Assembly: GCF_000283555.1 (NCBI RefSeq)
Contig: NC_016012.1
Coordinates: 961,012-993,011, forward strand
Direction of reading: 5' to 3'
DNA length: 32,000 nt
Source of the DNA: Candidatus Arthromitus sp. SFB-rat-Yit
GTDB lineage: Bacteria; Bacillota; Clostridia; Clostridiales; Clostridiaceae
In this document: piece by piece, positions 4,400 through 31,919 of the stretch
Numbering within the stretch: position 1 is the stretch's first letter
Layout of the letters: each line of letters begins with the position of its first letter
Translations under genes and position numbers: made by a program
The notes under the pieces: model-generated
What the model was told of the DNA's origin: nothing
What the model saw: only the letters and a program-made list of their open reading frames with translations
Databases searched by the model: none

Positions 4400-4402
4400 C
4401 TC

Positions 4403-5461: not shown

Positions 5462-5490
5462 TTTAAACACCCCTAACATTTATTATATAT

Positions 5491-5519: not shown

Positions 5520-5522
5520 AAT

Positions 5523-5581
5523 TCAATTGTTTTTAAGAACATTTTTATTTTTATATGATCATTTTTATTTAATCAATTGTT
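5523..5581. promoter_or_regulatory. repeat cluster in the divergent ulaG/regulator control region (candidate operator)
   Basis: An exact 11-mer CATTTTTATTT occurs at 5540-5550 and 5560-5570, 20 nt apart. It is flanked by an exact 9-mer TCAATTGTT at 5523-5531 and 5573-5581, which contains the palindrome CAATTG. Confidence 0.35.
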
Positions 5582-5600
5582 AATAATAATATAATAATAT

Positions 5601-5631
5601 TTGACAAACCATAATTTTAAACAGTTATAAT
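5601..5631 (+). promoter_or_regulatory. candidate sigma-A promoter of the DeoR regulator gene
   Basis: TTGACA (5601-5606) and TATAAT (5626-5631) are both perfect hexamers, but the spacer is 19 nt. The alternative TTATAA gives an 18-nt spacer. Confidence 0.45.
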
Positions 5632-5687
5632 AAAATTAATCATAAGTGCAATGGTACAATTATTTATTTGATAAAGTGGTGAGTATT

Positions 5688-13642: not shown

Positions 13643-13654
13643 TATACACTCACC

Positions 13655-14107
13655 TTACTTTTTTATATACTTTACCATTTTAATATGAGTTCCCTTATCT
13701 CTGCTACTATCAACATATAATTCGTCCATAAAACTTTCCATCACTGAAAATCCCATGCCCGAACGTTCAAGATCAGGTCTTGATGTATATAGAGGCTCTC
13801 TTGCCTGATCAATATTATCAATTCCACATCCATAGTCTATAATACTTATTGTAACTTTATATTTGTCATTGTCATTATTGTCTTCTTCATTATCTTCAAT
13901 ACCAACATTAATAACTACATTAGTATTTTTATCTTCATTATAACCATGTATTATAGCGTTAGTAACAGCCTCTGACACTGCAGTTTTAACATCGCTAATC
14001 TCTTCAAGTGTTGGGTCAAGTTGAGCAATAAATGCAGCGACAGCAACCCTAGCAAAACTTTCATTGCTAGACCTACTGCTTAAAGTTAAACTCATACTAT
14101 TTTGCAT
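13655..14107 (-). CDS. spoIIAB: anti-sigma-F factor / serine protein kinase SpoIIAB
   Basis: Collinear with remembered B. subtilis SpoIIAB ([18 protein letters not shown]....[15 protein letters not shown]; [17 protein letters not shown]). AGGGGGA lies 5 nt before the ATG at 14107, and the track start at 14125 overlaps the spoIIAA stop. Confidence 0.92.
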
Positions 14108-14117
14108 ACAAATCCCC

Positions 14118-14462
14118 CTAAGCATTATTCATAACCTCTGTTAAATCACTATGTATTTTTACAATTTTATTAATACCCGACAATTCAATAACTTTTTTAA
14201 TTGTTTGATTCAAATTAACTAAAAACACTTGTCCATTCTTAGCTGTTATCTTTTTATGTCTTCCAATTATTATTCCAATGCCTGAACTATCCATAAACGA
14301 AACATTTTTAAAATCAAAAACTAAATTTTTAGAAGTGGAAGTATCTATGTAGTAATCTATTTTTATCCTTATATATTCAGCTGAATGATGATCTAATTCT
14401 CCATTAAGATAAGCTACAATAGTATTATTTTGCTCTTCACAAAAAACTTCCAAAAAAAACAT
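14118..14462 (-). CDS. spoIIAA: anti-sigma-F factor antagonist SpoIIAA (STAS domain)
   Basis: [11 protein letters not shown] and the phospho-serine motif [13 protein letters not shown] match B. subtilis SpoIIAA (LTGELDHHTAE; FMDSSGLGVILGR). The start is uncertain by a few codons, since a TTG 3 codons in has better RBS spacing. Confidence 0.9.
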
Positions 14463-14608: not shown

Positions 14609-15271
14609 CTACTTTACTAATTGTATAATCTTGATATCATTATTTATCCTATAAACTAAATGATCACTATTTTTCATAACAAGACAAATATCTTCATCAT
14701 CATAAAGTTTTTTGAAAAGCTTCAATTTATTTTCAACACTCAATAAAAATTTTTCATTTATTGTTTGTATTGGAACATCATTTTTATATGTAACAGAATC
14801 ATTCATCTTATTTAATATAAAGCTCAAAACACTATCCAAATCTTCATTCAATAAATACAAATAAATCTCCATAATACATGAAAGATCTATCTCTTCTAAA
14901 AGATCTACAAGTTTTATATACAACTTAATATCAAAATTATTTTTAAATTTCATTCCAACTAATATTGAATCGATCTTGAATAAAATATTTTTAATATCTT
15001 TATTACTAAAAATTCCATCGCAAATATTTTTGATATGTTTAATATTAATTGGTTGACTTGTATAATGCACATTTAAATTTAATCTACTAACATAACCTTC
15101 TATAATTCCAAAAATATTTTTATTAAAATTATTAAAAATCTTATAGAAAACATTCCGAATTTCGTTTAATATAGTCGCCTGGTCAAATGAGTCTTCTAAA
15201 TCATTCAATAATTTTATAACATTATAACCATCACCAAATAGGAAAAAATATCTTTCACTACAATATTTCAT
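14609..15271 (-). CDS. hypothetical cytoplasmic protein (220 aa)
   Basis: GAGGAG lies about 10 nt before the ATG, and the ORF is uninterrupted. No signal peptide, TM segment or family is recognised. Confidence 0.6.
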   Translation of the reverse strand: MKYCSERYFFLFGDGYNVIKLLNDLEDSFDQATILNEIRNVFYKIFNNFNKNIFGIIEGYVSRLNLNVHYTSQPINIKHIKNICDGIFSNKDIKNILFKIDSILVGMKFKNNFDIKLYIKLVDLLEEIDLSCIMEIYLYLLNEDLDSVLSFILNKMNDSVTYKNDVPIQTINEKFLLSVENKLKLFKKLYDDEDICLVMKNSDHLVYRINNDIKIIQLVK

Positions 15272-16345: not shown

Positions 16346-18091
16346 CTATTTTCTCAAAATTATTTCGTCATAATAAAATGTTTTAAATATGTTAACTGAA
16401 TTTATTCCAAAAATTCTTCTATTATAAACATCAAATTTCTTACATTGAAACAATGGAATCACAGGCAAATCTTCTTTTAAAATTTCATAAGCTTCAATAT
16501 AAAAATCCTTATTTGACTCTATATCAAAATTTCTATTGATATGCGTTAATATTTCATCTAATCTTTGATTCGAATAAAAAATATGATTATCCATCCCCGA
16601 CGTGTGAAAACTTCTATACCAACTACTACCAGAAATAAACCCATCGCTTACTAAAAATAGATCATAATCATTTTTCTTCGAAATAAAATCAGAAATATTA
16701 TAAATATCGAATTCTTCTTTAATCAATGAGATCCCAGCATTTTTCAAATCTAACTCTATTTTTGGATAAATATTCTGACATAGCTTATCATTTTTTTGGA
16801 CAAGAATTTTAAATTGTAAGGCTTTTCCATCTTTTTCAAAAATATCGTACCTATTTTTAATCCATCCTTGCTCATTCAAAACCCTAACTGCTTCTATTTT
16901 GTTAAAAGTATTTTTCACATTATCCTTGTCATAAAAAAATTTATAAAAAATCCTATCAATCGGACTATCTATAACATTTAATTTTAAGTTTGATACACTT
17001 TCCGCAATTTTATTTTTATCTATAGCCAAATTAATGGCTTTCCTAACAGGAATCTCCTTTAACGATTCATTTGAATGATTAATTCCAATCGAAACATAGC
17101 CATATGAATCAAATATGTATCCATTTAAAAATTGAGCATTCGCTGTTTTTTCGATATTTTCATTATTGAATAAAACATCATACGCTATATCAATATCACC
17201 TGAAATTAAATTTCTTATGTAATTTTCCTCGTCAACTTTTTTAAAAGTTAATGTTTCAATATCTGTTTTACCTTTATAATAGTTTTCATTTGCTTTAAGA
17301 ATTAAATAATTTTCATCCTCATAACCTAAAAATTTAAATACCCCATTTCCAAAAGGTCTCAAATTTCTTTCAAAAATTTCATTTGCCCTACCCTGATAAT
17401 AATATTGACCATAATACAAATAAGAAAGAGGATAAATATTTAAAAGTCCTATCGTTTGAACGCTTGGATTTTCCACAGTAACTCTAAAATTATACTCATC
17501 TATAATTTCAATACCTTCAATAAAATCCACCGATCCACTGTTATACTCCCTCCAATTTTTAATATCCAAAGTTTCTCGATCAAAACTTCCTCTATAATTT
17601 GAATCCATCAAAAATTTATATGTAAAATCAACATCCTTCGTAGTGAGCTTCGTTCCATCTTCCCAAACTAAATCTTCTCTAAGCGAAAAAAAATAAGTCT
17701 TTCTATCCTCTGATACTGTTGGAAGTTGTTTCAAAATGTTTGGAAAAAACTCACCATCAAGCCCTGTTTTCATTAAAGGTTCCCAAATAGCATCAATCAC
17801 CTGATAATCATAATTAGATTCAATTAAATAAGGATTAAAATTAAACTTGTTTAAATACTTTATCCCAACATTCAATATATCTTGCTTTACGATAGCATTA
17901 TTATTTGAAGAATTAAAATTGCTAGCACTTATGTATAATGTATCTTTATCAAATTTTCCCGATCCTTTATATATGTTATCAACTTGTATTTTATTTCCTG
18001 TTTCTCCCTTATTAGATTTGCATGATGAAATGAAACAAAAAATCATAAATATACTCAAAATTAAATTAATTTGTCTTATAAATTTCCTCAT
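16346..18091 (-). CDS. ABC-transporter solute-binding lipoprotein, family 5 (OppA/DppA-like peptide/nickel binding), orphan
   Basis: 581 aa. The signal peptide has the lipobox FISSC. The size and blocks (..WEPLMK.., ..L.EDLVWEDGT.LT..DV.FTY.., ..GNGVFKF.., ..Y..GK..I..L.FK) are typical of SBP_bac_5. GGAGG lies 9 nt before the ATG. No permease or ATPase gene is adjacent. Confidence 0.8.
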   Translation of the reverse strand: MRKFIRQINLILSIFMIFCFISSCKSNKGETGNKIQVDNIYKGSGKFDKDTLYISASNFNSSNNNAIVKQDILNVGIKYLNKFNFNPYLIESNYDYQVIDAIWEPLMKTGLDGEFFPNILKQLPTVSEDRKTYFFSLREDLVWEDGTKLTTKDVDFTYKFLMDSNYRGSFDRETLDIKNWREYNSGSVDFIEGIEIIDEYNFRVTVENPSVQTIGLLNIYPLSYLYYGQYYYQGRANEIFERNLRPFGNGVFKFLGYEDENYLILKANENYYKGKTDIETLTFKKVDEENYIRNLISGDIDIAYDVLFNNENIEKTANAQFLNGYIFDSYGYVSIGINHSNESLKEIPVRKAINLAIDKNKIAESVSNLKLNVIDSPIDRIFYKFFYDKDNVKNTFNKIEAVRVLNEQGWIKNRYDIFEKDGKALQFKILVQKNDKLCQNIYPKIELDLKNAGISLIKEEFDIYNISDFISKKNDYDLFLVSDGFISGSSWYRSFHTSGMDNHIFYSNQRLDEILTHINRNFDIESNKDFYIEAYEILKEDLPVIPLFQCKKFDVYNRRIFGINSVNIFKTFYYDEIILRK

Positions 18092-18190: not shown

Positions 18191-21100
18191 TTAATACGCC
18201 AATCCCATAGAAGCAACATATTGTTTGAATTCTGATTCATTCATCATCTCACTAGCTATTTTTATTCTCAAATCTGCTAATGACTCTAATTGTACTCTAT
18301 ACTCATCATATTTTCCTATCCAATATTTTTGTCCTTCTTCTTCTGGATCTCTTCCTACAACTATTTGGTACATCATTTTTATAAAATCTTCTTTGTTTAG
18401 ATATCTATTTATGAATTCATCTTGTTTCATTAAGCCATAAATAAATTGAGTTACTGTTAATTCTTTAGATTCTAATCTTTGAACCCAGAATTTCCATCCT
18501 TCAACCTCTGGCTGGCGTCCAAGTGAAGCAAGATAAATTTTTGATACAAATTCTGCAACTTTTCCAGTAGGTGGCTCTATTGCTGGTTTTGTTGTGAAAG
18601 TATTGATTTTATATCTAGTCAATAAACCATTCTCAAGTTTGAAAGTTATTTCTAGACTATTGTATTCAGTCATTGGTTTCAAGTCACTTAATCTTAAAGT
18701 TAATGTGCTTACATCCCAAGTAAATTTAATACTTTCATTGTTTAATGCTACGCTAGATATTTTAGATTGTGGATTTGAAAACAGTTCAAACACGATTTCT
18801 GCTGTTGTATCTGTAGTAGTTATTGTAGTTCCTTTTACATCTACAGATGAAGCTTGAGGTGTAGTTATCTTTGCGTACTTTGATAAAGTTTGTTCTTTAT
18901 TATCTTTATCTCTCCAAATGAAATCAAGTTTGTATACTGTTTCAGTTTTTGGCTCTAGATTTGTAAACTTCAACAATCCACCTTCTAAAACCAACTCTAC
19001 ATTAGGATTATTCGCTGGCTTTTGGAAATCAATTCTTACAAATCTATCATTCAAATCATCAACTAACACTGGAATTTCAGCTTTTCTAGCCTCTAATGTC
19101 TTAGCATCAAATAAAGTTACATTAAATGCATCTGTTCCTGTTAACTCTGGACCTGTTTCGTTATCAAGATTTACACCTGGAACTTGATGAATACCTGTAG
19201 TTGTAAAAACTACTCCTGTGACTGCAGAAGGTGCTGTAGCTATACTAATATTAGTTATTTTATTAATCGTATTTAATACTTGTCTTGTAACAAGCTCTCT
19301 CTTATCAATATCAACGTAGCTGAGTTCAAGAATTAAGAATCCATAATCTCTCTTCTCTGATAAATTGTAAAGAGTTAAGATGAAATATATTTTGTCTTTT
19401 CCTTCAATTCTCTCAACCTTAAACTTCTCATCACCTTTGAGTCCATTAACAGTTAAATCTTTAATAGTTACATCACTATTATCAACTTCTATAACATACC
19501 TTAGAGCTGTTTTATCATTTTTAACAGCAGGCATTACTAACTTATTTGGAAGTTCAACATTTAATTTTGGATAGAATACCTCAACAGTATCACTTCCAGA
19601 AACAGTTGATGTAAACATTCCACTTGTAGTATTAACATATTTCTTCTCTGGATCAAGCTCTATATAAAGTTTAGGCTCTGTAAAATTTGAAGTCCTAATA
19701 GATAAAGTATGAGTAAGCACAGTTGTTACTGTTGTAGTACCACTTATACTAGATGTCATTATTTGAGATAAAAATATAGTCTTTGTTACATCCTTTTCTT
19801 CTGGTTTTGCTGTTACATGTAACTTTCTAAATGTGTATGGAGTTGACCTCTCTAGTCCTGTTACATGCAGGTATCCACCCCTCTCTGGTTTATCTGTATC
19901 AATTAAAGCAACAGATGCTGGATATTTATTTAATCTATCATCTTCAACTTCCATTTTTGTTATAGTCTTATCTTTATCAAATATCTTTAACGTATTAAAT
20001 CTTACACTGTTACCATTAGTTCTCAATGCTATATTTGAAGCTGTAGTTGATATCATTTGTTCATAATCAAAATAAGTCGTATCATCAATTGAATTAAAAT
20101 CAATATTCATCGCTGAAGGTGTACTATTAGTATGCGTATATATCATTTCTGCTGCTGTTAATGTAGAATTATCTACCTTATAAGTTTCAAATAATGGTAG
20201 CTGTTTACCAGTCTTGAAGTTTGTCATACTGAATCCTTCAAGATAATTAACAACACTCTTTGTGTTAGGATCAGAGTAATAGGTAACGTTCTTATTAAGT
20301 GCAACAAACTGATAATTTGTATTTGTCTTCATTTTTTCAAATGCTTGGTAATCCTCAGGGTTCTTTATATCAAATCTAACAGCCATTCCCTCTGCATTTA
20401 GATTCATATTGGACGTTGTCGTTGTTCTAACATTATTAGTTACAGCGTTATTAACCAATGAATCTTCCGCTATAATACTTCTCAAGTAATCCATACTATC
20501 TGGAAATATTGATTCCCCATCATAGAGTACTGTAACTTGCTTAGGAGAAATATCATCAACATCTTTAAATGTAAACATTAAGTTTGGAATTCCACCAGTA
20601 TAACTCCCAGTATTGGATTCAAATATTGCTCTAAGAGCCCTTGCTAATTGTGCTCTGTGAGTTATCTCTGGTATACCTGCTGGATGAGAAGGAGCAGATG
20701 TTGATAAATTAGTTCTAACTCCATTGATATCATCAATCATTTCATTTGCAGCTTTAATCATAAAATCTCTTAAACTAGCTGTTACAGTTGTTGGTGTTGT
20801 TCCTCCGGTAATACTTGAATCCATAAAAACAATATTCTGAGAATCAAAAGAAGATACAAGAGATACTGTTGCTAGAACATCAAGCACCTTACCAGTTAAT
20901 ATGAAATCTGCCTTCGCTTTCCCTTGGAAAGTATACATTCCACTTTCAACTGTAGTTTCTGTAGTTGATATTATTAAATCTACTCCACCAATTGTACTTC
21001 TAAACTGTGAAATAGTACCAGATGGCTTAGCTGTAGGATCTATCCTATTATCATTTATCGCTCTTGGAGTTAACCCATAAGTTGCTATACGACTCATATC

Positions 21101-21631
21101 GGCTACAACATCAAAAGCATCTTCTGGAATTTCTTGAACATCAAATGAATCTTGAACATTATTATCGATTATTACTTCCTCTGTTACTTCATCTACTTTT
21201 TCATTTCCTTGATTATTTTCTCCTGATCCGGACATGGCAACTCCATCCTCTTGATTATTTTTTTGATCTTGTAAATCGTGTACGCTGTCATCACTGCTGC
21301 TGTCAATTTGTATTTGACTGTCTTGACTGATTGTTTCGTCGACCTCAACAACTTTTTCAAAATCTTCTTGCTTTTCAAATTCCACTTCTTCAAAATCTCC
21401 TTCCTCCACTAATATTGTTTTCTCGTCATTAGTAGATTCTTGAGAGTTTTGAAATGATTGTTCATTTTCACTCGTGACCGTTTCTATATGTTCTGATATT
21501 TGCACCTCTTCTACGCCTTCAGCTGTATTTTCACCAATTCTACTTTTATTAATTCCTCCATTAGCTTGCTCCATAATTTTGTTATAAATTGTATTAAAAT
21601 TTAAAGAATTATTATCGTTTTGGTCTTTCAT
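18191..21631 (-). CDS. giant modular protein, paralogue P1: acidic E/Q/D-rich N-terminus, no signal peptide, conserved N-domain, FN3/Ig-like modules, double DUF4214-like C-terminal tail
   Basis: The uninterrupted ORF is collinear with the three upstream paralogues (see findings). The probable start is the ATG at 21631 (MKDQNDNN..), with AAAGGAA 9 nt upstream. The track start at 21670 has no RBS. The C-terminus reads ..VAEFVSKIYLASLGRQPEVEGWKFWVQRL...FIKMMYQIVVGRDPEEEGQKYW.. Confidence 0.9.
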   Translation of the reverse strand: MKDQNDNNSLNFNTIYNKIMEQANGGINKSRIGENTAEGVEEVQISEHIETVTSENEQSFQNSQESTNDEKTILVEEGDFEEVEFEKQEDFEKVVEVDETISQDSQIQIDSSSDDSVHDLQDQKNNQEDGVAMSGSGENNQGNEKVDEVTEEVIIDNNVQDSFDVQEIPEDAFDVVADMSRIATYGLTPRAINDNRIDPTAKPSGTISQFRSTIGGVDLIISTTETTVESGMYTFQGKAKADFILTGKVLDVLATVSLVSSFDSQNIVFMDSSITGGTTPTTVTASLRDFMIKAANEMIDDINGVRTNLSTSAPSHPAGIPEITHRAQLARALRAIFESNTGSYTGGIPNLMFTFKDVDDISPKQVTVLYDGESIFPDSMDYLRSIIAEDSLVNNAVTNNVRTTTTSNMNLNAEGMAVRFDIKNPEDYQAFEKMKTNTNYQFVALNKNVTYYSDPNTKSVVNYLEGFSMTNFKTGKQLPLFETYKVDNSTLTAAEMIYTHTNSTPSAMNIDFNSIDDTTYFDYEQMISTTASNIALRTNGNSVRFNTLKIFDKDKTITKMEVEDDRLNKYPASVALIDTDKPERGGYLHVTGLERSTPYTFRKLHVTAKPEEKDVTKTIFLSQIMTSSISGTTTVTTVLTHTLSIRTSNFTEPKLYIELDPEKKYVNTTSGMFTSTVSGSDTVEVFYPKLNVELPNKLVMPAVKNDKTALRYVIEVDNSDVTIKDLTVNGLKGDEKFKVERIEGKDKIYFILTLYNLSEKRDYGFLILELSYVDIDKRELVTRQVLNTINKITNISIATAPSAVTGVVFTTTGIHQVPGVNLDNETGPELTGTDAFNVTLFDAKTLEARKAEIPVLVDDLNDRFVRIDFQKPANNPNVELVLEGGLLKFTNLEPKTETVYKLDFIWRDKDNKEQTLSKYAKITTPQASSVDVKGTTITTTDTTAEIVFELFSNPQSKISSVALNNESIKFTWDVSTLTLRLSDLKPMTEYNSLEITFKLENGLLTRYKINTFTTKPAIEPPTGKVAEFVSKIYLASLGRQPEVEGWKFWVQRLESKELTVTQFIYGLMKQDEFINRYLNKEDFIKMMYQIVVGRDPEEEGQKYWIGKYDEYRVQLESLADLRIKIASEMMNESEFKQYVASMGLAY

Positions 21632-21726
21632 GAATTTTGATTCCTTTAAAATTAATTGATTCAATATCATTATTAGTTGTAAGAATAATGTTTTATGACA
21701 AATTTAATGAACTTTATTTCACAAAA

Positions 21727-21762
21727 CAAAAAAAAATTAAAGAGTCAACAATAATTGACCCT
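21727..21762 (-). terminator. rho-independent terminator after the small DUF1659-like gene
   Basis: On the minus strand, AGGGTCAA, a TTATTG loop, then TTGACTCT (8 bp including one G-U pair), followed by TTAATTTTTTTTT. Confidence 0.75.
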
Positions 21763-21802
21763 TTTTATAAAAATTATACTATAGATGTTACTCTATATTA
21801 AA

Positions 21803-22084
21803 TTACTCCATTACACTATCTATTAAGTTAGTTGTAACAACTTTAATATCATATCTTGTGTGTTCAATTACTTTTGATACAGATTTTGCTACTTCACTTA
21901 AAGCATCATTTGTTGCTCCTTGCTTTATACCTGAAATAGTTTTTGTAAATCTTCTTATCGTTCCATCATCCTCATCAAAATAAAAAGTTATTACCAAATT
22001 ACTTGTTAATGTTGTAGATGTTATAACTTGTGCATCCATTAAATCAATTTGTTCCATATTTTGTTCCATATTCATATTCTCCAA
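21803..22084 (-). CDS. small protein resembling the DUF1659/DUF2922 family of Firmicutes, embedded in the paralogue array
   Basis: ..LVITFYFDEDDGTIRRFTKTISGIKQGATNDALSEVAKSVSKVIEHT.YDIKVVTTNLI fits my recollection of the DUF1659 pattern (l.l.F..G.de.G.p....ksf.nik.dAtde.l..va.al.sL.......v......l). The track start is a TTG. The ATG at 22069 (MEQNMEQ..) has GGAG 9 nt upstream and is the more likely start. Confidence 0.6.
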   Translation of the reverse strand: MENMNMEQNMEQIDLMDAQVITSTTLTSNLVITFYFDEDDGTIRRFTKTISGIKQGATNDALSEVAKSVSKVIEHTRYDIKVVTTNLIDSVME

Positions 22085-22094
22085 AAATATATTA

Positions 22095-22164
22095 CTTAAA
22101 AATAATAGATGAACTCAATGCAAGGGGTTCTTCTGTGAAATACGGGTGAACTTGAGTTCATCTA
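22095..22164 (-). terminator. long-loop hairpin plus U-run between P2 and the small gene (terminator or leader element)
   Basis: A perfect 13-bp stem (22106-22118 TAGATGAACTCAA / 22152-22164 TTGAGTTCATCTA) encloses a comparatively GC-rich 33-nt loop. On the minus strand it is followed by TTATTTTTAAG. It ends only about 20 nt before the RBS of the small gene. Confidence 0.5.
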
Positions 22165-22215
22165 CTCTAAATAATATTATCTACAACAAAATTTATTACA
22201 AAAAATTTTAAAACT

Positions 22216-25200
22216 TTAATATATAAGTCCTATCCTACTCACTAACTCTTTAAATTCCGGCTGATCCATCATTTCTCTCGCTATCTTAATTCTTAGCTGT
22301 GCGATAGTCGAAACTTCATTCCTATATTCAACATATTTTCCTTCCCAATATCTTTGCCCTTCCTCTTCTGCCTCTCTGTCTACTATTAAAGTGTACATTG
22401 TTGAAACAAATTTCGATTTAGTAAGTTCCCTGTCAACAAATTCTGGTTGAGTCATTAAATTCTCAGCTATAAATTCCGTAGCTGAAAGCTCTTTACTCTG
22501 AAGTTTTTCTATCCAGAAATTCCATCCTCCACCTTCAGGCTCACGTCCAAGAGCAATATTATATACTCTTCTTACAAATTCAGCTACCTCTCCTTTTGGT
22601 TTATTCTCATCGACAACCGTTTTAAAAGTTCCCAGTGGATATTCAACACTCTTTCCATTTTCTAAATTTATCCTTATAATTACGTTCGTGTATGTGTATT
22701 CTGGTTTAAGTCCTTCTAATTTTATTGTGTTTGTATCGTTATCCCATGTTGATTTAAAAACATTATTTAAATCATCATAAACTGATACAGATTTTACTTT
22801 TGATTTTGGCTCTGAATATGTGTTTAATTTAATATTTACCTTAGTTGGATCAACTACATTTATATCTGCAGATTTAATATCATAATCTGGTGTTTCTGTT
22901 GTTGTTAATCTAACATATCTTTTTATTTGATTCGCTTCTCTAGCAGTCGTATTATTACAATTAAATATTACAGTAAACATTCCACTTGTTTCTGGTTTCA
23001 AATCACTAAATTGTAATACAAAGTTGTCATAACTTACTTTTGCATCTGGATTATCGTCAGGATTTTTAACCTCGATTGAATCTATCCTATTTTCCAAATC
23101 ATCAATTAAAATTGGAACTCTTGCAACTCTTGCGTACGATGAACTAAAATTATCATTTAATGAAATTTGTACAGCTTCTTCAACTGGTAATGGTTCACCC
23201 TCAGTTGTGTTATCATATTTAATGTTTTCACCTTTTGATGGATTTAATGTTGATAAACTTTTTCTAGCAATCTGAACATTTCCATTGCTATCTAAATAAT
23301 TTAATTCCAAAATTACAAATCCATAATCTTTATTCTTCGTCAAATTATTAAGCGTCACTATATAATAATTTTCCTTCTGCGTTTTATCTATCATCTTTTC
23401 TACTCGGTATGTTTCAGAGTCCGTAAGACTTGTAACATTAAGATCTAAAACATTCCCTTGTTTATTATCAACTTTAAATACATATCTTAATGCAGAATCA
23501 GAATTCTTAACAATGTTAGTATCAAGACCATTTGGAAGCTTAATCATCGAAGAATTCGTGCCAGCTAATTGAATTTTTGGTTCTGGCTCTTTTAATGTAA
23601 CTACAGGTTCATAATTTTGTTTAACAGTTCCATTATCATAATAACCTAAATTCAATTCTTGAGTTGTCGTTCTTCCATTCATATCTGATGTTATAAATAA
23701 TTTTGTAAACACATATGGCGTACTACTCTTAAGCCCATTTACCTCAATTGAAAAAGTATCCGTATTCTCCAAAGTCAAACTACAATTATATCTATAACCT
23801 TGATCATCCTGAATCTCAACTCTTGATATACTTCTATCAGTATCTTTGAAAGTTATATTTCTAAATCTTATAGAATTTGTTGTAATAAAAATATCTTGCT
23901 CACTTGTCCCATATGATTTCATATCCAAATAAACGCCATCTTTAAATTGAGTGACATACATATCATTTTTAGCAGTACCTTGTAAATTTTGTGAAGTCGT
24001 TTCATATAAATTAGATTTTCCTGCATTTTTAGATACAAATAACGCTGGAGCTTTTCCAGTTTTACAGTTACTCAATCCCGTTAAAGTCAACTTAACATCA
24101 TCACCAACAGTTATATCTCGATTCACTTCCTGTTCCTCTAAAGCATTCAAAGTATAAACCGTATTAGTACGAAGCTTATCTCCAATTGTGTTTTCATTCT
24201 CATTTCTAATTACAATTCTTAAAGCAACATCACTAGCTCTTATTTCACCTTCTGAACTCATGCTTGATAAATCAATAATATTTTTAATATACTTTTCTTT
24301 ATCTGGTGCAAAGTCCGAACTCATCTTAACTTTTTTCACACCACCATTACCATCAAATGATAATTGTGCATTCATATCATCTAAAATTTTAGAAAGAGCA
24401 TCACGAAGTTTTTTCCTCTCTACAGTTTCATTTGAATTTTTCTTCGCTTCCTCATATGCTTTAATAATTAAATCTCCAAGAGTGCCTTCATCATAATTTC
24501 TTATTACATAAGTTGAAATTTTAACTTCTTGTTCTGTATCTTCTTGCTCTGCATCATCTTTTTCCGTAGTGTCTTCTTCTGTATCAGTATTATCATCCTC
24601 TACAGAATCATCATCACCTGTAGTTCCATCTTCTCCAGGTTTTGAAGGTTCTGAAGGTTCTTCAGGTGATGGAGTAGTTTCTGATGGTGGTTGTGGTTGA
24701 GAGGTTTCTCCATTTTCTTCATTTTCATCTCCTGCTTCACCTTGACCAGGGTTTGATCCAGCATTGTCGCTTCCACTTCCATCTTGTACACCATCTTCAG
24801 TTTCGCCCCCTTCTACCTCATCTCCATCTTCTTCTGAACCTTGGTCACCATTTGGCTTATCGCTATCACCTTCACCTTCTGAAGGTTTATCCACTTCTTC
24901 ACCTTCTGAATTTTCTGGAGGTGTTGTTTCAATCACTTTTTTATTTAATATTTCACCTGATAATTTTAAACTCAACTCTATTGTTCCATAAGGTGTGTAT
25001 GATTCTCCAGAACCAAGCAATTCAGAACTACCTAAGCTCTTAATAATTTGAACTTGGCTTTGATTTGTTTTATCTGGTTGTGATGGTTGTTCAGGACTAT
25101 TCTCAACATTAGGTGGTTCTGTACCATTTGATGGTGGAGTTACTGGTGTAGTCGACGGATCTTGAACACTATCCCCCTCACTACTACTTTCATCTTGATC

Positions 25201-25434
25201 TACAGAACTGTCGTCTGTTGTTGGGGCATCAACTACAACATCTCCATCTCTCAAACTTGAATTTAAATATGCATAAATCAATTTATTATCTTCACCCGTT
25301 TCAACAGCCGCACGATCCAAAGCCATTGTAACTTCCATATTTTTTTTCATATTATAAGGCATAAGATGTCCTGAAAAAATATTTGATGTAATAAACATCA
25401 CAACTAACATAAAGCTAACTTTCCTCTTATTCAT
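22216..25434 (-). CDS. giant modular protein, paralogue P2: plain (non-lipobox) signal peptide, two acidic/Pro-rich tracts, conserved N-domain, FN3/Ig-like modules, double DUF4214-like tail
   Basis: 1072 aa. AGGGAGGG RBS lies about 7 nt before the ATG. The N-terminus MNKRKVSFMLVVMFITSNIFSG has no Cys. The protein is collinear with P1, P3 and P4. The C-terminus reads ..VAEFVRRVYNIALGREPEGGGWNFWIEKL...FVSTMYTLIVDREAEEEGQRYW.. Confidence 0.92.
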   Translation of the reverse strand: MNKRKVSFMLVVMFITSNIFSGHLMPYNMKKNMEVTMALDRAAVETGEDNKLIYAYLNSSLRDGDVVVDAPTTDDSSVDQDESSSEGDSVQDPSTTPVTPPSNGTEPPNVENSPEQPSQPDKTNQSQVQIIKSLGSSELLGSGESYTPYGTIELSLKLSGEILNKKVIETTPPENSEGEEVDKPSEGEGDSDKPNGDQGSEEDGDEVEGGETEDGVQDGSGSDNAGSNPGQGEAGDENEENGETSQPQPPSETTPSPEEPSEPSKPGEDGTTGDDDSVEDDNTDTEEDTTEKDDAEQEDTEQEVKISTYVIRNYDEGTLGDLIIKAYEEAKKNSNETVERKKLRDALSKILDDMNAQLSFDGNGGVKKVKMSSDFAPDKEKYIKNIIDLSSMSSEGEIRASDVALRIVIRNENENTIGDKLRTNTVYTLNALEEQEVNRDITVGDDVKLTLTGLSNCKTGKAPALFVSKNAGKSNLYETTSQNLQGTAKNDMYVTQFKDGVYLDMKSYGTSEQDIFITTNSIRFRNITFKDTDRSISRVEIQDDQGYRYNCSLTLENTDTFSIEVNGLKSSTPYVFTKLFITSDMNGRTTTQELNLGYYDNGTVKQNYEPVVTLKEPEPKIQLAGTNSSMIKLPNGLDTNIVKNSDSALRYVFKVDNKQGNVLDLNVTSLTDSETYRVEKMIDKTQKENYYIVTLNNLTKNKDYGFVILELNYLDSNGNVQIARKSLSTLNPSKGENIKYDNTTEGEPLPVEEAVQISLNDNFSSSYARVARVPILIDDLENRIDSIEVKNPDDNPDAKVSYDNFVLQFSDLKPETSGMFTVIFNCNNTTAREANQIKRYVRLTTTETPDYDIKSADINVVDPTKVNIKLNTYSEPKSKVKSVSVYDDLNNVFKSTWDNDTNTIKLEGLKPEYTYTNVIIRINLENGKSVEYPLGTFKTVVDENKPKGEVAEFVRRVYNIALGREPEGGGWNFWIEKLQSKELSATEFIAENLMTQPEFVDRELTKSKFVSTMYTLIVDREAEEEGQRYWEGKYVEYRNEVSTIAQLRIKIAREMMDQPEFKELVSRIGLIY

Positions 25435-25454
25435 TTCAAAACCCTCCCTAGTAT

Positions 25455-25484
25455 AAAAAAAGAGATGGCAGATAAGCCATCTCT
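25455..25484 (-). terminator. rho-independent terminator after P3, about 20 nt upstream of the P2 start codon
   Basis: A 9-bp stem (AGAGATGGC / GCCATCTCT) has a 6-nt loop. On the minus strand it is followed by a T-run and then directly by the P2 RBS. Confidence 0.8.
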
Positions 25485-25498
25485 CTTTTTTGAAATGA

Positions 25499-28400
25499 TT
25501 AATATATCAATTGAAGTTTAGTCACTAACTCTTTAAACTCTGGTTGATCCATCATTTCTCTCGCAATCTTAATCCTTAACTCAGCTATAGACTTAACTTG
25601 ATCTTTGTATTCATCATATTTTCTTTCCCAATAGTTTTGGCCATCACCGTCTGGCTCTCTATTAACTATCAATGAATACATTGTCGTAACAAACTTCGAT
25701 TTACTTAACTCTCTATCAACAAATTCTGGCTGAGTCATTAAATTCTCTGCAATAAATTCTGTAGCTGAAAGTTCTTTTGATGTCAATTTATTAATCCAGA
25801 AATTCCATCCTTCAACTTCTGGCTCACGTCCAAGTGCTATTGTATAAACTCTTGAAACAAAATTTGCAATATCTCCTGTTGGCTTAACAATTTCTTCACT
25901 TGTTGTAAATGGACTCAACTCATACTTACTTGTTAATTTATTTTCTAACGTAAATGTTGCAACAAGTTCACTATATTCTTTATTTGGTTCAAGATTATAA
26001 AGTGTTATGGTATTGGTATCTTTGTCCCAAGAACTTCTTATAACATTAGAATTTTTATCTCTAACTTCTACTGATTTAATACCTGATTTTAAATTTTCAT
26101 AATAATCAAGTTTTATACTTACTTCATTTCCTTTTACACTTGCAATATCAGACTTAACATCTACTTCTGGAACAGATGGCGTCATAACTTTCAAATATCT
26201 TGTTAACACTTTATCATTGCCACTTGCATCTTTATAATTAAATTCTAGAGTTATCGTTGTAGTAGAATTAGGTTTTAATCCTGTTATATCTAAATATGAA
26301 TCTTTAAATTCAACCTTTGCATCTGCATTATTTGCTACAGGTTTAAAAGTCATTCCTGATATCCTTCCATGAATATCATCAACAAAAATTGGAACTCTTG
26401 CTTTTCTTGCATAATCACTCTTAAACTCATCGTTTATTACCACATTGATATCATTCAAGCCTGTTAAAGCTTCCTTCTCTGTCCTGTTATCCATTTTTGT
26501 ATTATTAGGATCAGACTTATAAATATTTCCTATTGATTGTCTTGTTGATTTTTCTGTACCTGTTTCATCTTTATAGCTAAGTTCAAAAATAACATGACCA
26601 TAATCAGTGTTAGGTGTAAGATTTGTTAAAGTTACTATATAATAATTAGTTTTTGTTTTGCTATCCTCAATCTTTTTAACTTCAGATTTTTCAGTTGAAG
26701 TTAAAGAAAGAATTTGCAAATCTCCAATATTTCCTTCACTGTTATCAACCTTAACTATATATCTAAGTGCTGTAGAATCATTTTTAACTGGTTTTACTTT
26801 TAACCCATTAGGTAAAGTAACATCGTCATTTACATTACCAGAACCTAATTCTATTTTTGGTTCAGAAACCTTAGTTGTCCTAACTGTCAATTGGTTAGCC
26901 GTAATATTATTACTTGAATCTACGTTAGCTAAATCGATAGTAACTGTTTCATCTTGCACTCCAATATTTGAAGTTACAAGAAGTTTCGTGAATGTGTATG
27001 ACGTATCTCTCTCAAGGCTATTTACTTGAATATAATATCCCTTATCTTTATTTGATGGGTCAACAGGCACCAAACTACATGCATACTTTGTTCCTCTAGC
27101 ATCTTGCATTTCAACTTTTGTAATTGTGCTATCTGGATCATCGAAAACTATATTTTTATATTTAATAAATGTTCCACCAGTTACTATTCCATCTTTAATA
27201 TTTTGGTAATCTGTCATATCCAAATAAATTCCTGGTTTAATCATTGTTGTTATATATTTTTGTTTTTCAGTTCCTTTATTATTGCTTGCTGTAGTTTCAT
27301 ATATAAGAGTATTACTACTATCATTCTTAACAGTTAAAGTTGAAGGTGATTTACCTGTTCTACACTCTGGAACTGTAAAACCTGATATAAATTGATTGTC
27401 ATTTGCATCAACTTTCAAACTATTTCCATCACTATTAGTTCCACCTATACCGACGAATGTATAATCGGTATTAGTTTTAAGTGTTGTATTATCATTTGAA
27501 GCCGAACTACTTCTTATCATCATTCTTAATACAATATCTTTAGAATTAATAGTTCTTGCACTTCTCAAAGTTCTTCCTGTTGTCCTCATACCATTTAAAT
27601 CTATAATACCTCTTACATAATCCTTGTTGCTTGTTGCATCTGGGAATATATCAGAAATAGAAACGTTTACAAGAGTTCCTTTTGGATCTCTAAACATCAA
27701 TGTTTTTCCTGTATTATTATCAGAAATTACTTTTTTAAGTGCCTTTTGTAATGCTTCCCTAGCTGTTGTTACTTGTCCTGACCACCCACTATTAGAATCT
27801 TTAATTGCTTCATCAAAAGCATTTGAAACTAATCCACTTAAATTCTCTTTATTTAATACTTCTCCTGATAATTTAAAGCTTAAATAAATAACACCTTGAA
27901 TATTCCCAGCATCACCTGTACCTACCACTTCACTTGATCCAACACTTCTTACTGGAATAATTTCTCCTATCGTTGTTTTTTCTGCAGTAGCCTGTGGAAC
28001 AATACCGCTATCTTGTGTATTTTGTGGGGCAACTACATTAGCTTTATTTTGAGATTCACTAGCTGATGGTGTTACTTCTGCACTATTGATTGCATTATTT
28101 AAACTTCCAGTATTTCCTTGAGATGAACTATTTATTTTACTATCAGTTGTATCATTTATCATTGAATCAACATCATCTTGAACAATAGCTCCACCAAATC
28201 CTGTCATAGTATTTCCATTATTAAACGAATTAACATTATCGTTTGATATTATTTCATCAGATGGAGTCATTTGATAATCTGTCATTGTTTGATCAAATAA
28301 GTTTACATCATTTGATTCTGGATTCATTTTTAAGTTATCTGTTACTTCATTATCTTGAGTTCCATAAATATCGTATGGAGCTACATCATATGGAGCTACA

Positions 28401-28711
28401 TTATTATCAAAATTATTTTTTTCATCTATTATTGATGTTTCATCTATAATTTCATCACCATAATTAACATTTGGATAAGTTTCAGAACCATAATCTTGTG
28501 AAGTGTTATTAGTATAAGGATTATTTACTCCATATCCATCTCCTGTATATTCCGTAACAGTTCTATCTGCTGCTCTTCTAAATCCACCCTCTCCTTGTGC
28601 TACATTTGCACCATTATCCGCACTTTTATTGTTATTTGATGTGCAACCTGTTAACATACTTGAGGCAACAACTAATCCAGTTAATAGAAGTGTAATCTTT
28701 TTTCTATTCAT
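25499..28711 (-). CDS. giant modular lipoprotein, paralogue P3: lipobox signal peptide, N/S/D/T-rich tract, conserved N-domain, FN3/Ig-like modules, double DUF4214-like tail
   Basis: 1070 aa. The N-terminus is MNRKKITLLLTGLVVASSMLTGC, with lipobox LTGC. The protein is collinear with the other paralogues. The C-terminus reads ..IANFVSRVYTIALGREPEVEGWNFWINKL...FVTTMYSLIVNREPDGDGQNYW.. Confidence 0.92.
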   Translation of the reverse strand: MNRKKITLLLTGLVVASSMLTGCTSNNNKSADNGANVAQGEGGFRRAADRTVTEYTGDGYGVNNPYTNNTSQDYGSETYPNVNYGDEIIDETSIIDEKNNFDNNVAPYDVAPYDIYGTQDNEVTDNLKMNPESNDVNLFDQTMTDYQMTPSDEIISNDNVNSFNNGNTMTGFGGAIVQDDVDSMINDTTDSKINSSSQGNTGSLNNAINSAEVTPSASESQNKANVVAPQNTQDSGIVPQATAEKTTIGEIIPVRSVGSSEVVGTGDAGNIQGVIYLSFKLSGEVLNKENLSGLVSNAFDEAIKDSNSGWSGQVTTAREALQKALKKVISDNNTGKTLMFRDPKGTLVNVSISDIFPDATSNKDYVRGIIDLNGMRTTGRTLRSARTINSKDIVLRMMIRSSSASNDNTTLKTNTDYTFVGIGGTNSDGNSLKVDANDNQFISGFTVPECRTGKSPSTLTVKNDSSNTLIYETTASNNKGTEKQKYITTMIKPGIYLDMTDYQNIKDGIVTGGTFIKYKNIVFDDPDSTITKVEMQDARGTKYACSLVPVDPSNKDKGYYIQVNSLERDTSYTFTKLLVTSNIGVQDETVTIDLANVDSSNNITANQLTVRTTKVSEPKIELGSGNVNDDVTLPNGLKVKPVKNDSTALRYIVKVDNSEGNIGDLQILSLTSTEKSEVKKIEDSKTKTNYYIVTLTNLTPNTDYGHVIFELSYKDETGTEKSTRQSIGNIYKSDPNNTKMDNRTEKEALTGLNDINVVINDEFKSDYARKARVPIFVDDIHGRISGMTFKPVANNADAKVEFKDSYLDITGLKPNSTTTITLEFNYKDASGNDKVLTRYLKVMTPSVPEVDVKSDIASVKGNEVSIKLDYYENLKSGIKSVEVRDKNSNVIRSSWDKDTNTITLYNLEPNKEYSELVATFTLENKLTSKYELSPFTTSEEIVKPTGDIANFVSRVYTIALGREPEVEGWNFWINKLTSKELSATEFIAENLMTQPEFVDRELSKSKFVTTMYSLIVNREPDGDGQNYWERKYDEYKDQVKSIAELRIKIAREMMDQPEFKELVTKLQLIY
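25726..25882 (-). repeat. highly conserved 3' coding block shared with 28991-29147 (DUF4214-like tail)
   Basis: Hand alignment of the two plus-strand segments shows 13 mismatches and no gaps over 157 nt. The central parts of the genes are far more diverged. Confidence 0.8.
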
Positions 28712-28733
28712 AACCTTCTTAAAACCTCCTAAT
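28637..28733 (-). repeat. conserved RBS plus signal-peptide block shared with 31845-31940
   Basis: The P3 leader AGGAGGTTTTAAGAAGGTTATG differs from the P4 leader AGGAGGTTTAAGAAGGTTATG by one indel. The first 75 coding nt differ at 9 positions by hand count. Confidence 0.75.
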
Positions 28734-28763
28734 TCATAAATAACATTTGTTAATTTATATCAA

Positions 28764-31700
28764 CTAATAATTTAATCCCAATGAAGTTACTAAATCTTTA
28801 AATTCTTTTTCATTCATCATTTCTCTTGCAATTTTAATTCTCAAACTTGCAACTGTACTTGTTTGTTCTCTATATTCGTTATATTTTCTTTCCCAATAGC
28901 TTTGTCCATCTTCATCTGGAGTTCTGTTAACTATTAATGAATACATAGTTGTAACAAACTGTTGTTTATTTAATTCTCTTTCAATAAACTCTGGTTGAGT
29001 CATTAGGTTTTCTGCAATAAACTCTGTAGCTGAAAGTTCTTTTGATGTTAATTTATTAATCCAGAAATTCCATCCTTCAACCTCTGGCTCACGCCCAAGA
29101 GCTATTGTATAAACTCTAGATACAAAGTTTGCAACATCTCCTGTTGGTTTTGGAGTAACTGTTCCAGTTTTAAATGTAGTTAATGGATATTCTACAATTT
29201 CTGTATTTTCAAGAGTAAATTTAGCTATTAATCCTTTAAATTCTGTATTAGCATCCAATCCTTGTACAAGAATTGAATTTGTAGCAGAATCCCAATTAGA
29301 AGTATATTTTTTACCTGATGAATCTTCAACTGATACAGATTTAATAGGTGATTTTGGAGTTGAATAATAATCAAGTTTAATTGTCGCCTCATTATCTTTA
29401 ATAGTAGCCGTATCTGTTTTAATATCTAAATTTCCTATAACTGGAGTTTTTATAGTTACATATTTCCTAATGCTTTGCTCTGTATTTGAATCATTATTAT
29501 AAACAAATTCAAGGGTAATAGTTGTATTTGTATTTGGAGTTAAACCTGATACGTTTACATAAGAACCATCATACTCAACTTTAACATCAGGATTTGATTC
29601 TAATGGAATATAATTCATTCTAACGAATCTTCCATTCATATCATCAATGAATAAAGGAACTCTTGTACTTCTTGCATAATCAGACTTATGGTTTGTTTCA
29701 ATATCTACTGTAAAAGTACTTTGTCCATTAACAGGGTTATTTTCTGTTACGTTATCAACTGTTGCATCATCTCTCTTGCTATTGATTTGAGCTAATGTTG
29801 TTCTAAGAACCCCATTTTTACCATCATAATCTTTATAATCTAATTCTAAGTTAACAAAGTTGTAATCTGTTGCTTTAGAAAGATTACTCAAAGTTACTAC
29901 ATAATAATTAATCTTAGCTTTCTTATCTACTATTTTTTGAATCTTAGACTCTTCTCCTGGTCTTAAACTTGTTACTCTTAATTCACCGATATTATCTTCA
30001 GAATTATCAACCTTCAATACATATCTTAATGAAGTTGCATCGTTCTTAACAGCTTGTACGTTTAATCCTCCTGGAAGCGTAACCATTTGTTTAGGTCCAC
30101 TTGCTCCTAATTCTAATTTTGGCTCACTAAATGTTGTTGTTTTAATCGGCTTAGTATTTTTAGTTGCAGCTCCGGTTGTTTGCTTCTCTTTTAATTGAAG
30201 AACACTAACTTGTTCTTTACCATCAGTGTTTGAAGTTATATCAATTTCAGTGAAAATATAGTTACTATCAGTTCTTAATCCTGAAATCTGTAAATACTTA
30301 CCTTTTGTTTTATCGTCAGGATCAACTTGAATTAATGATCCTGTATAAGTTTTATCCTCTGAATCCTTCATTTCAATCTTTACTATACTATCATCAGGAT
30401 CAACAAATTTAATTCCTTTAAATCTTATAGTTGTACCTCTAGCCTCAACATTATCAGCACTAGTAAAATCAAAATCTCCTACATTAAGATAATATTTTTT
30501 TGCTAACTGGCTTGTATAAAATGTTCCACTAACCTGTGTAGTAGTCGTATTACCACCAGTAGTAGTTTCTTCATATATTGCATTATTCATTACATTTATA
30601 GTAGAAGGGGCTTTTGCTGTTGTCGCTTGAGGAATATTTAATCCCGTTAAAATTTTATCATCTTTTATTGGAAGCTCATTATTTTTAATATTGCTTCCTG
30701 TTAAACCAACAAATGTATAATTTGTATTTGTAGCTAATTCATCATTACCTTGTCCATCCGCACCTTGTAATCTCATAATAAGAGTAATTGGAATATCTTG
30801 TGAAGTAGCTCTTACAGATCTTTGTCCACTTCCTTTATACATACCATCAATATCAATTATTCTTCTTACGTACTGTGAATTTTGATTCTTTGGAGGACAG
30901 ATATTAGCAGCAGTGTATGGTATATTAACTATTTGACCTTTGCTATCTTGGAATGTAAAATTATTACCAGCTGTCACATTAAATATTTCAGCTAATCCAG
31001 CTTGTAAAGCTTCCCTTGCTGTAGTATCTTTAGCTGCTCCTTCAAAATTTGTATTAGCATCTTGTAAAGTTTCCTCATAAGCCTTTTGTATTAAATCAGC
31101 TAAAGCAACCTGAGTACCACTTCCATTATTAACTTTAGTAGAAAGTACATCTCCTGTTAACTTAAAACTAAACCTAATAGTTCCTTGTGGTTTTTTCTGT
31201 CCTTGAGCTCCAGTTAATTCGACACTACCAATACTTCTAACAGGCACGATATTACCAGCTACATTAGTTTGTGTATTTCTAGCATCTTGTGCTTGTACTT
31301 GAGATTGTTGTGGCAATACATTCATAACTTGTCCATTACCATCAACATCTGTACCTGAAGTAACTCCATTATCTTTAACATCATTGGAGTTTATATCATT
31401 TGTTGATTCATCAATCCCATTTATATCGTCTGACAATCTTCCAAAACCATTTAATGGTTCCATAATAGACGCATTATTTTGAAATTCATTCATCCCATTT
31501 GTTCCAAAAATATTTTCTGATGAAGCCAAATTATTTTCCGTTCCATTTCCATTCATTGATCCATCAGACGTTATATTTTCTGAATAGTTATTTAAATTCT
31601 CATCTGCTGAGTTATTAAATCCATTATTAATTTCATTATTTGATTCATTAACTGTATTTGTTCCTGTTTTATCATCAGCATAAGCAATATCTGGATATCC

Positions 31701-31919
31701 TCCAGATTGATATTGATCATTAGAATTGTATGGATACTCTGCTGCTTCTTTAAATTCTGTTACAATTCTTTCTGTTGCTCTCTGCAATGCATTCTCATCA
31801 TATCTAGAAACTTTAGTGTTATTATCTTGAGAGTTCTTGCTTGATGATGTACATCCCGTAAATATACTTGAGGCAATTGCTAATCCAGTTAATAGAAGCG
31901 TAATCTTTTTTCTATTCAT
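28764..31919 (-). CDS. giant modular lipoprotein, paralogue P4: lipobox signal peptide, N/S/G/D-rich tract, conserved N-domain, FN3/Ig-like modules, double DUF4214-like tail
   Basis: 1051 aa. The N-terminus is MNRKKITLLLTGLAIASSIFTGC, with lipobox FTGC. A 52-nt gap with no hairpin separates it from P3, so the two are probably co-transcribed. The C-terminus reads ..VANFVSRVYTIALGREPEVEGWNFWINKL...FVTTMYSLIVNRTPDEDGQSYW.. Confidence 0.92.
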   Translation of the reverse strand: MNRKKITLLLTGLAIASSIFTGCTSSSKNSQDNNTKVSRYDENALQRATERIVTEFKEAAEYPYNSNDQYQSGGYPDIAYADDKTGTNTVNESNNEINNGFNNSADENLNNYSENITSDGSMNGNGTENNLASSENIFGTNGMNEFQNNASIMEPLNGFGRLSDDINGIDESTNDINSNDVKDNGVTSGTDVDGNGQVMNVLPQQSQVQAQDARNTQTNVAGNIVPVRSIGSVELTGAQGQKKPQGTIRFSFKLTGDVLSTKVNNGSGTQVALADLIQKAYEETLQDANTNFEGAAKDTTAREALQAGLAEIFNVTAGNNFTFQDSKGQIVNIPYTAANICPPKNQNSQYVRRIIDIDGMYKGSGQRSVRATSQDIPITLIMRLQGADGQGNDELATNTNYTFVGLTGSNIKNNELPIKDDKILTGLNIPQATTAKAPSTINVMNNAIYEETTTGGNTTTTQVSGTFYTSQLAKKYYLNVGDFDFTSADNVEARGTTIRFKGIKFVDPDDSIVKIEMKDSEDKTYTGSLIQVDPDDKTKGKYLQISGLRTDSNYIFTEIDITSNTDGKEQVSVLQLKEKQTTGAATKNTKPIKTTTFSEPKLELGASGPKQMVTLPGGLNVQAVKNDATSLRYVLKVDNSEDNIGELRVTSLRPGEESKIQKIVDKKAKINYYVVTLSNLSKATDYNFVNLELDYKDYDGKNGVLRTTLAQINSKRDDATVDNVTENNPVNGQSTFTVDIETNHKSDYARSTRVPLFIDDMNGRFVRMNYIPLESNPDVKVEYDGSYVNVSGLTPNTNTTITLEFVYNNDSNTEQSIRKYVTIKTPVIGNLDIKTDTATIKDNEATIKLDYYSTPKSPIKSVSVEDSSGKKYTSNWDSATNSILVQGLDANTEFKGLIAKFTLENTEIVEYPLTTFKTGTVTPKPTGDVANFVSRVYTIALGREPEVEGWNFWINKLTSKELSATEFIAENLMTQPEFIERELNKQQFVTTMYSLIVNRTPDEDGQSYWERKYNEYREQTSTVASLRIKIAREMMNEKEFKDLVTSLGLNY
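28991..29147 (-). repeat. highly conserved 3' coding block shared with 25726-25882
   Basis: Same hand alignment as for 25726-25882: 13 mismatches in 157 nt. Confidence 0.8.

Follow-up and report, generated by a model that had tools for sequence, protein, structure and literature searches.

Four tandem DUF4214 paralogues of a rat segmented filamentous bacterium are candidate cell-envelope proteins

Segmented filamentous bacteria (SFB) are a model commensal for the induction of intestinal T helper 17 (Th17), immunoglobulin A and CD8 responses, which depend on close contact with the epithelium. Here we analyze an array of four giant paralogous genes, termed P1 to P4, in a stretch of 32,000 nucleotides (nt) from Candidatus Arthromitus sp. 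SFB-rat-Yit (NC_016012.1, positions 961,012 to 993,011; hereafter the window), and compare their products with known surface proteins. The closest described class was outlined by Pamp et al. in 2012, who proposed that SFB-specific, predicted-secreted proteins with a C-terminal DUF4214 domain are components of surface structures; their Cluster.1 comprises 19 proteins, and one protein of Cluster.3 has an FN3 domain (PMC3371716). In a cryo-electron tomography study of 2025, unicellular SFB were found to have a surface layer (S-layer) and filaments a hair-like layer, whose hair-like structures are 34 +/- 6 nm long and 1.3 nm wide, and the composition of both layers was stated to be unknown (PMC12780176). 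The same study notes that SFB largely lack the usual clostridial wall-binding domains, that DUF4214, which is also found on SFB peptidoglycan hydrolases, is the likely anchor, and that the wall-associated Th17 antigen is excluded as part of that hair-like layer (PMC12780176).

The array fills 13.7 kb of the window (positions 18191-31919; about 30% G+C in the window) with four co-directional open reading frames (ORFs) on the minus strand, which also carries all features of the array described below. These are P4 (28764-31919, 1051 amino acids (aa), BAK81437.1), P3 (25499-28711, 1070 aa), which is 100% identical to the NCBI entry 'DUF4214 domain-containing protein [Ca. Arthromitus sp. SFB-rat-Yit]', P2 (22216-25434, 1072 aa, BAK81435.1) and P1 (18191-21631, 1146 aa, RATSFB_0872, BAK81434.1). 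The longest ORF of P1 extends to 21670, and we favor the ATG at 21631 as the best-supported start, because AAAGGA lies about 9 nt upstream of it, rat-mouse conservation starts there and BAK81434.1 likewise has 1146 aa. The four proteins are acidic (pI 4.5-4.8), have masses of 116-129 kDa and align collinearly from end to end. The other three are 45, 35 and 32% identical to P4, and about 160 alignment columns are invariant. A first-pass annotation of the window, made from its letters, had proposed four collinear paralogues at this place, and all motifs that it quoted are found in the translations: TNTxY(T/Q)(F/L), (A/S)LRY(V/I)..VDN, (T/S/N)WD..T and, in P2-P4, Y(V/I)(R/K).IID. Four ORFs of more than 1000 codons in DNA of 30% G+C, whose order and sequence are kept in another genome, are far beyond chance. 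Judging from their domain content and the structure model, we hold with moderate confidence that P1-P4 are paralogous, SFB-specific cell-envelope proteins, most likely wall-associated surface proteins with a structural or coat role and not enzymes. Since such a class has been recognized since 2012 (PMC3371716) and the genes are annotated as DUF4214, the array is not a new kind of system, and the suggestion of a novel system in the first-pass annotation overshoots. A literature search found no paper that names the locus tags of the array genes.

We mapped the domain architecture on P3, using an AlphaFold2 model built on 22 family sequences. The parts that had been read from the letters, namely a low-complexity N-terminal tract, an N-domain, about five modules and a C-terminal tail, recur in this model, in which the tract is disordered, the N-domain is a separate unit, the five modules are rich in beta structure and the tail is helical. 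A predicted signal peptide (residues 1-23, 28643-28711) ending with the lipobox L-T-G-C is followed by a low-complexity spacer (residues 24-242, 27986-28642; 16% N, 11% D, 10% T, 9% S and 8% G), which is predicted to be disordered. Accordingly low is the predicted local distance difference test score (pLDDT) of residues 1-242, which stays below 35, while the chain is modeled as folded from residue 243 on, with pLDDT mostly 80-93. The N-domain (residues 243-392, 27536-27985) is an alpha/beta unit of about 150 aa with a pLDDT of 85 and a predicted template modeling score (pTM) of 0.79. It is modeled as a beta-hairpin and two helices, all of them long, plus a small beta unit. It has no relative in Pfam, PDB or BFVD, by sequence or structure, in line with the first-pass annotation, which could not place it in a known family. 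P4 is built alike, with the lipoprotein signal peptide MNRKKITLLLTGLAIASSIFTGC, an N/S/D-rich spacer, the N-domain, five beta modules and two DUF4214 repeats, and P1 has a divergent N-domain followed by five beta modules and two DUF4214 repeats.

The beta-rich modules D2-D6 of P3 (residues 393-937, 25901-27535) have approximate bounds of 393-512, 513-600, 603-730, 750-846 and 847-937. D3-D6 are mutually, if weakly, related (hhalign 28-76%), and neither the N-domain nor D2 is related to the rest of the chain. Foldseek searches with the P3 model matched strings of immunoglobulin (Ig)/FN3 domains only, among them SbsB (4aq1), SraP (4m00) and SGBP-B (6e9b and 6e57). At the sequence level, the best match to the Pfam family fn3 (PF00041) lies in D4 (residues 634-709) and reaches 18 bits (E 0.0034), which is below the gathering score of 25 bits. 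Thus, of the FN3/Ig-like assignment in the first-pass annotation the beta-sandwich fold stands and the family membership does not, and on the modeled structure the term holds at fold level alone.

The tail had been assigned to DUF4214 (PF13946), and Pfam bears this out for all four proteins: two stretches at each C-terminus score 50.4-57.8 bits (E 1e-13 to 1e-15) against a gathering score of 23.2 bits. In P3 the tandem repeats cover residues 938-1070 (25502-25900) and are modeled as eight helices (943-1070), and the two halves are clearly related to each other (hhalign 97%). The tail is the most conserved part of the proteins, with 92% identity between rat and mouse SFB for P3 and 52-78% among paralogues; a search with the tail returned short fragments only. 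DUF4214 is the sole Pfam family above threshold in P1-P4, NCBIfam gave no match, and there is no catalytic domain among the Pfam or NCBIfam matches. Likewise, no PDB entry was matched by sequence profiles of either the entire family or its tail. Moreover, neither SLH (PF00395) nor CWB2 (PF04122) was matched by Pfam in P1-P4 at E values up to 0.1, and LPXTG is absent from all four copies, which instead end with a DUF4214 helix terminating in ..GL(I/N/A)Y.

A secretion signal is predicted from a hydrophobic N-terminus for P2, P3 and P4 and not for P1 or its orthologues. Using the lipobox pattern [LVI][ASTVI][GAS]C, we find LTGC at residues 20-23 of both P3 and P4, whose N-termini read MNRKKITLLLTGL...(L/F)TGC and thus qualify by sequence as those of lipoproteins. 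The lipobox cysteine (C23) is kept in at least 90% of the family members and is nearly invariant among the lipobox-bearing ones. At the N-terminus of P2 (residues 1-28, 25351-25434), the signal peptide ends with FSGH in rat SFB versus FSGC in mouse SFB, indicating that rat P2 has probably lost lipidation. P2 differs also in an insert of about 170 aa rich in E, D, G and P (residues ~167-335, ~24430-24936) between the beta-hairpin (~126-166) and the first helix of its N-domain, which is present and even longer in the mouse orthologue; because the insert splits the N-domain, MAFFT misaligned the P2 hairpin. P1 has neither a hydrophobic N-terminus nor a signal peptide and starts with an acidic tract of about 180 aa.

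Conservation analysis showed that the array is kept as a unit in mouse SFB. A mouse-type assembly has exactly four copies in the same order, polysaccharide deacetylase, P4, P3, P2, DUF1659, P1, SBP_bac_5, M28 peptidase, and mouse orthologues of P3/P4 are SFBM_1026/1027, SFBmNL_01101/01102 and EGX28523.1/EGX28522.1. Other SFB-like metagenome-assembled genomes (MAGs), including Candidatus Dwaynia gallinarum, harbor partial arrays with the same flanks. An exhaustive hidden Markov model (HMM) search with the family core, excluding the DUF4214 tail, against 1.84 billion cluster representatives matched 33 proteins, 20 of them below 1e-30; these 20 are about 960-1240 aa long or fragments. All core matches that bear a source name or record title are from Candidatus Arthromitus/SFB or SFB-like MAGs, so that the claim of a lineage-specific family is sustained. 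By sequence comparison, the N-domain and five-module core defines a separate subfamily that appears restricted almost wholly to SFB-like genomes. The sole clear relative that is not SFB-like, a distant 956-aa protein (Logan SRR26958225, L005 89-2959), aligns with the central part of the core (E 7e-23) and has an ordinary signal peptide, a differing composition and a C-terminal DUF4214-like tail. P4 itself is missing from the homologue list because the representative of its 90% protein cluster is, apparently through a clustering artefact, HEX5530618.1, a protein of 40 aa from Methylomirabilota.

A neighbor-joining tree separates clades of P1, P2, P3 and P4 and an extra lipobox-bearing clade from other SFB lineages. 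The duplications are thus old, which suggests that the copies are used at differing life-cycle stages or positions. Recent gene conversion of the tails is unsupported: for P4/P3, the fraction of identical residues that also have identical codons is 0.68 in the tail versus 0.56 in the core, a slight excess that purifying selection suffices to explain.

A plausible mode of action as wall-associated surface proteins would start with Sec export and lipidation at Cys23. The low-complexity spacer (~100-220 aa), predicted to be disordered in P3, could carry the chain through the thick wall, the string of beta-sandwiches could form a rod of about 25-30 nm, and the DUF4214 pair might either attach the protein to or within the wall by non-covalent contacts or bind other DUF4214 proteins. 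Anchoring by DUF4214 would then stand in for the SLH, CWB2 and LPXTG anchors that SFB lack, and the proteins would contribute to the SFB surface as structural or coat components, with paralogues used at differing stages. There is also weak evidence that the proteins are made: the peptide NFETGTLGDLIK, detected by mass spectrometry of human gut fluid, is an exact match in the mouse P2 orthologue, and a second peptide, EMMDQPEFK, falls in the shared tail (PMC6034559).

Several observations weigh against this assignment. Rat P2 is without the lipobox cysteine, and in the P1 clade no member from any species sampled has a signal peptide. Hence the cell-envelope display that the first-pass annotation had inferred fits the export signals of P2-P4 and is doubtful for P1. 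A topology that is fixed at both ends, by an N-terminal lipid and a C-terminal wall module, would be unusual, and the lipid anchor might be cleaved. For DUF4214, our literature search found no experimentally established function. The geometry between domains is uncertain in the P3 model (pTM 0.46), and for this reason the rod length is an estimate only. Finally, EMMDQPEFK is not gene-specific because it lies in the shared tail, and the mass-spectrometry support consists of single peptides, obtained where the SFB population was very dilute.

Inspection of the intergenic regions indicates that the array is not one operon. The gap between P4 and P3 is 52 nt long and terminator-free. A strong intrinsic terminator follows P3 (25461-25484), with a G+C-rich stem of 9 bp and then a T-run. 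Downstream of P2 lies a hairpin (22104-22166) with a stem of about 15 bp, a loop of about 33 nt and a U-rich tail. It is kept in mouse SFB (L001 ~16738-16799) with one compensatory change, with z-scores of -6.8 and -5.4, and its loop contains the conserved sequence TTCACC...CAGAA...CCCCTT. The hairpin is probably a terminator or a regulatory RNA; Rfam detected no RNA family in it or anywhere else in the array. Between this hairpin and P1 lies a small gene (21803-22084) for a DUF1659 protein (PF07872, E 1.7e-10; 85-93 aa), which holds the same place just upstream of P1 in mouse SFB (L001 16836-17093). The DUF1659 protein SroA of Staphylococcus aureus reportedly stabilizes sigS mRNA and has a DUF2922 protein as its partner; no such DUF2922 partner occurs here. 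A domain-phenotype study from 2010 is said to have placed DUF1659 among the sporulation domains. The gene is followed by a terminator (21739-21764), whose stem differs between rat and mouse SFB and pairs in both, and another terminator follows P1 (18166-18185). Because terminators separate them, we assign P4-P3, P2, DUF1659 and P1 to several transcription units. The first-pass annotation had overlooked these terminators, as well as the DUF1659 gene, the acidic insert of P2, the lipoprotein signal peptides of P3 and P4 and the lack of a signal peptide in P1. Upstream of P1, a 37-nt block (TGAAATAAAGTTCATTAAATTTGTCATAAAACATTA, 21686-21722) is 100% identical in rat and mouse SFB while the neighboring intergenic DNA differs, making it a candidate promoter or operator. 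No sigma factor, including the sporulation type, could be matched to this block, and scans of the array for consensus sigma-70 promoters performed no better than on shuffled sequence.

In a more specific version of the envelope-protein reading, one or more of P1-P4 would be the subunits that repeat in the S-layer of unicellular SFB or in the hair-like layer or hair-like structures of filaments, with paralogues supplying stage-specific layers. We consider this version fairly unlikely. The separate transcription units could permit a stage switch. Both layers are still without assigned constituents and the Th17 antigen has left the list for the hair-like one (PMC12780176); mass, acidity and a beta string with a non-covalent anchor fit such a role, SbsB is among the fold matches, and about seven globular units would, by estimate, span roughly the 34 +/- 6 nm of the hairs. 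However, at least 19 further DUF4214 proteins would qualify just as well, and a hair width of 1.3 nm is thinner than an Ig domain.

P1 probably gets to its site by a route other than Sec, as its sequence and those of its orthologues indicate. That a leaderless copy has a small, sporulation-associated gene as its neighbor suggests non-classical delivery to the surface of the intracellular offspring. One could speculate that P1 is made in the mother-cell segment and deposited on these offspring. In its full form, the four paralogues would be stage-specific blocks of the S-layer on offspring and the hair-like layer on filaments, attached through a DUF4214 anchoring distinct from SLH and CWB2, with P1 laid onto the intracellular offspring from the mother cell in a spore-coat-like manner and without crossing a membrane; this we regard as distinctly unlikely.

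Alternatively, P1-P4 could be host-specific adhesins that present the N-domain on a beta-sandwich stalk at the holdfast tip, where it would bind an ileal epithelial ligand. The design of a stalk with a distal domain resembles SraP (4m00), the N-domain is lineage-specific, attachment of SFB is host-specific according to Pamp et al. (PMC3371716), and rat and mouse orthologues differ by 18-31%. Yet in the predicted topology the N-domain adjoins the membrane-proximal spacer and not the distal end. Rat-mouse identity is 69-82% overall and 77-92% in the folded domains, and is lowest in the spacers (60% for that of P3). This is similar to the flanking genes (SBP 73%, M28 83%) and to the mean of 83.4% published for the genome, and the folded domains (77-85% identity in this comparison) diverge no more than these. 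We therefore see no sign of host-driven diversification; fast host-driven evolution is unsupported, and an adhesin function appears improbable.

Very improbable is a role as surface binding proteins for the capture of glycans or peptides together with the neighboring polysaccharide deacetylase, SBP_bac_5 lipoprotein and M28 peptidase: although these flanking genes are kept with the array in rat and mouse SFB, tandem Ig-like surface lipoproteins (SGBP-B, 6e9b and 6e57) are among the fold matches and SFB are strongly auxotrophic, to go by the title of a cited reference, no carbohydrate- or peptide-binding Pfam family was detected in P1-P4, the SGBP match reflects generic Ig-string similarity, terminators part the array from the SBP gene, and four copies of 116-129 kDa seem excessive for this purpose.

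We also asked how the array relates to known SFB antigens, as the first-pass annotation had listed dominant antigens among its candidates; this does not hold for the two known T-cell epitopes, both of which are absent. The Th17 antigen P3340 (SFBNYU_003340/AID45212) was rejected as an array member. Its I-Ab epitope LVFDVQFSGAVPNKT was not found in the rat proteins, the mouse orthologues or any of the 47 retrieved relatives, even with 7-8 substitutions allowed, and a degenerate DNA pattern of it had no match in metagenome contigs. Furthermore, BLASTP and HMM comparisons with the first 399 aa of AID45212, taken from the Source Data of the respective paper, gave nothing below E 0.5, and accession numbers place its gene about 205 genes from the array. 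The epitope SGLIYVTL of the CD8 antigen SFBNYU_003240 is likewise absent from the rat and mouse copies and the retrieved relatives. Accession arithmetic places the array at about SFBNYU_00538x-0054xx, near the number of the B-cell antigen SFB5460, an identity that is unconfirmed, as is any mapping of the array to the B-cell antigens SFB5460, SFB3310 and SFB15470.

Outside the array, the window contains an operon of spoIIAA (STAS), spoIIAB (HATPase_c_2) and a sigF-like sigma factor gene (12881-14462, minus strand) about 4 kb downstream, in keeping with the SFB origin of the window. Between this operon and the array lie the genes for the SBP_bac_5 lipoprotein and the M28 peptidase and an ORF of 220 aa (14609-15271) without Pfam match. 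A 533-aa ORF on the plus strand (10729-12330) shows an unusual combination of an SCP2/alkyl-sulfatase-C-like domain, apparently duplicated when judged by eye, with a low-complexity linker rich in lysine and a C-terminal half that is hydrophobic. Further away, inspection by eye alone points to an ascorbate-type phosphotransferase system/utilization-like cluster (354-6434) with epimerase-, EIIC, EIIB, EIIA-, metallo-beta-lactamase- and DeoR-like ORFs.

With their domain map defined, the four conserved array proteins are concrete candidates for constituents of the SFB surface, namely of the S-layer or the hair-like layer. The separable N-domain suits the generation of antibodies or nanobodies, and the DUF4214 tail suits wall-binding assays. 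Should P1-P4 be ordinary wall proteins, the analysis would have no value beyond an improved annotation of RATSFB_0872 and the three genes upstream of it.

In comparison with known systems, the helical repeat tail is like the phycobilisome linker fold (PF00427, which belongs to the Pfam clan of DUF4214; 2KY4 is cited by Pamp et al.); the PBS_linker_poly match of P1 (E 0.003) is below threshold, and the biological context of phycobilisome linkers is unrelated. With SGBP-B of Bacteroides (6e9b) the array proteins have in common N-terminal lipidation, predicted here, and the tandem Ig-like domains that follow. SGBP-B, however, is an outer-membrane protein of a Gram-negative phylum and has no DUF4214, and no glycan-binding signature was found in the array proteins. 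Stalked adhesins of Gram-positive bacteria (SraP, 4m00, and the MSCRAMM type) share with them tandem beta-sandwich modules and one non-repeat domain. In contrast to SraP-type adhesins, however, the array proteins carry no LPXTG, their unique domain sits at the membrane-proximal end, and the window contains neither a serine-rich repeat region nor accessory Sec genes.

The array proteins also resemble the S-layer and wall proteins of Firmicutes, such as SbsB of Geobacillus (4aq1): both are acidic, of about 100 kDa, and combine an Ig-like string with a dedicated non-covalent wall module, which is putative here. Whereas other such proteins are anchored by SLH or CWB2, the array proteins have neither, and their putative anchor is the C-terminal DUF4214 pair. 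They also differ from S-layer proteins in adding an N-terminal lipobox and a long spacer predicted to be disordered. As for the SFB DUF4214 proteins themselves (Cluster.1 and Cluster.3 of Pamp et al., P3340 and SFBNYU_003240), membership of P1-P4 in Cluster.1 or Cluster.3 is unconfirmed. Of the features that define the class, a secretion signal is predicted for P2-P4 and not for P1, and the C-terminal DUF4214 domain and the restriction to SFB are both found. The array proteins resemble this class in organism group, in size (the Th17 antigen has about 110 kDa) and, for P2-P4, in predicted secretion.

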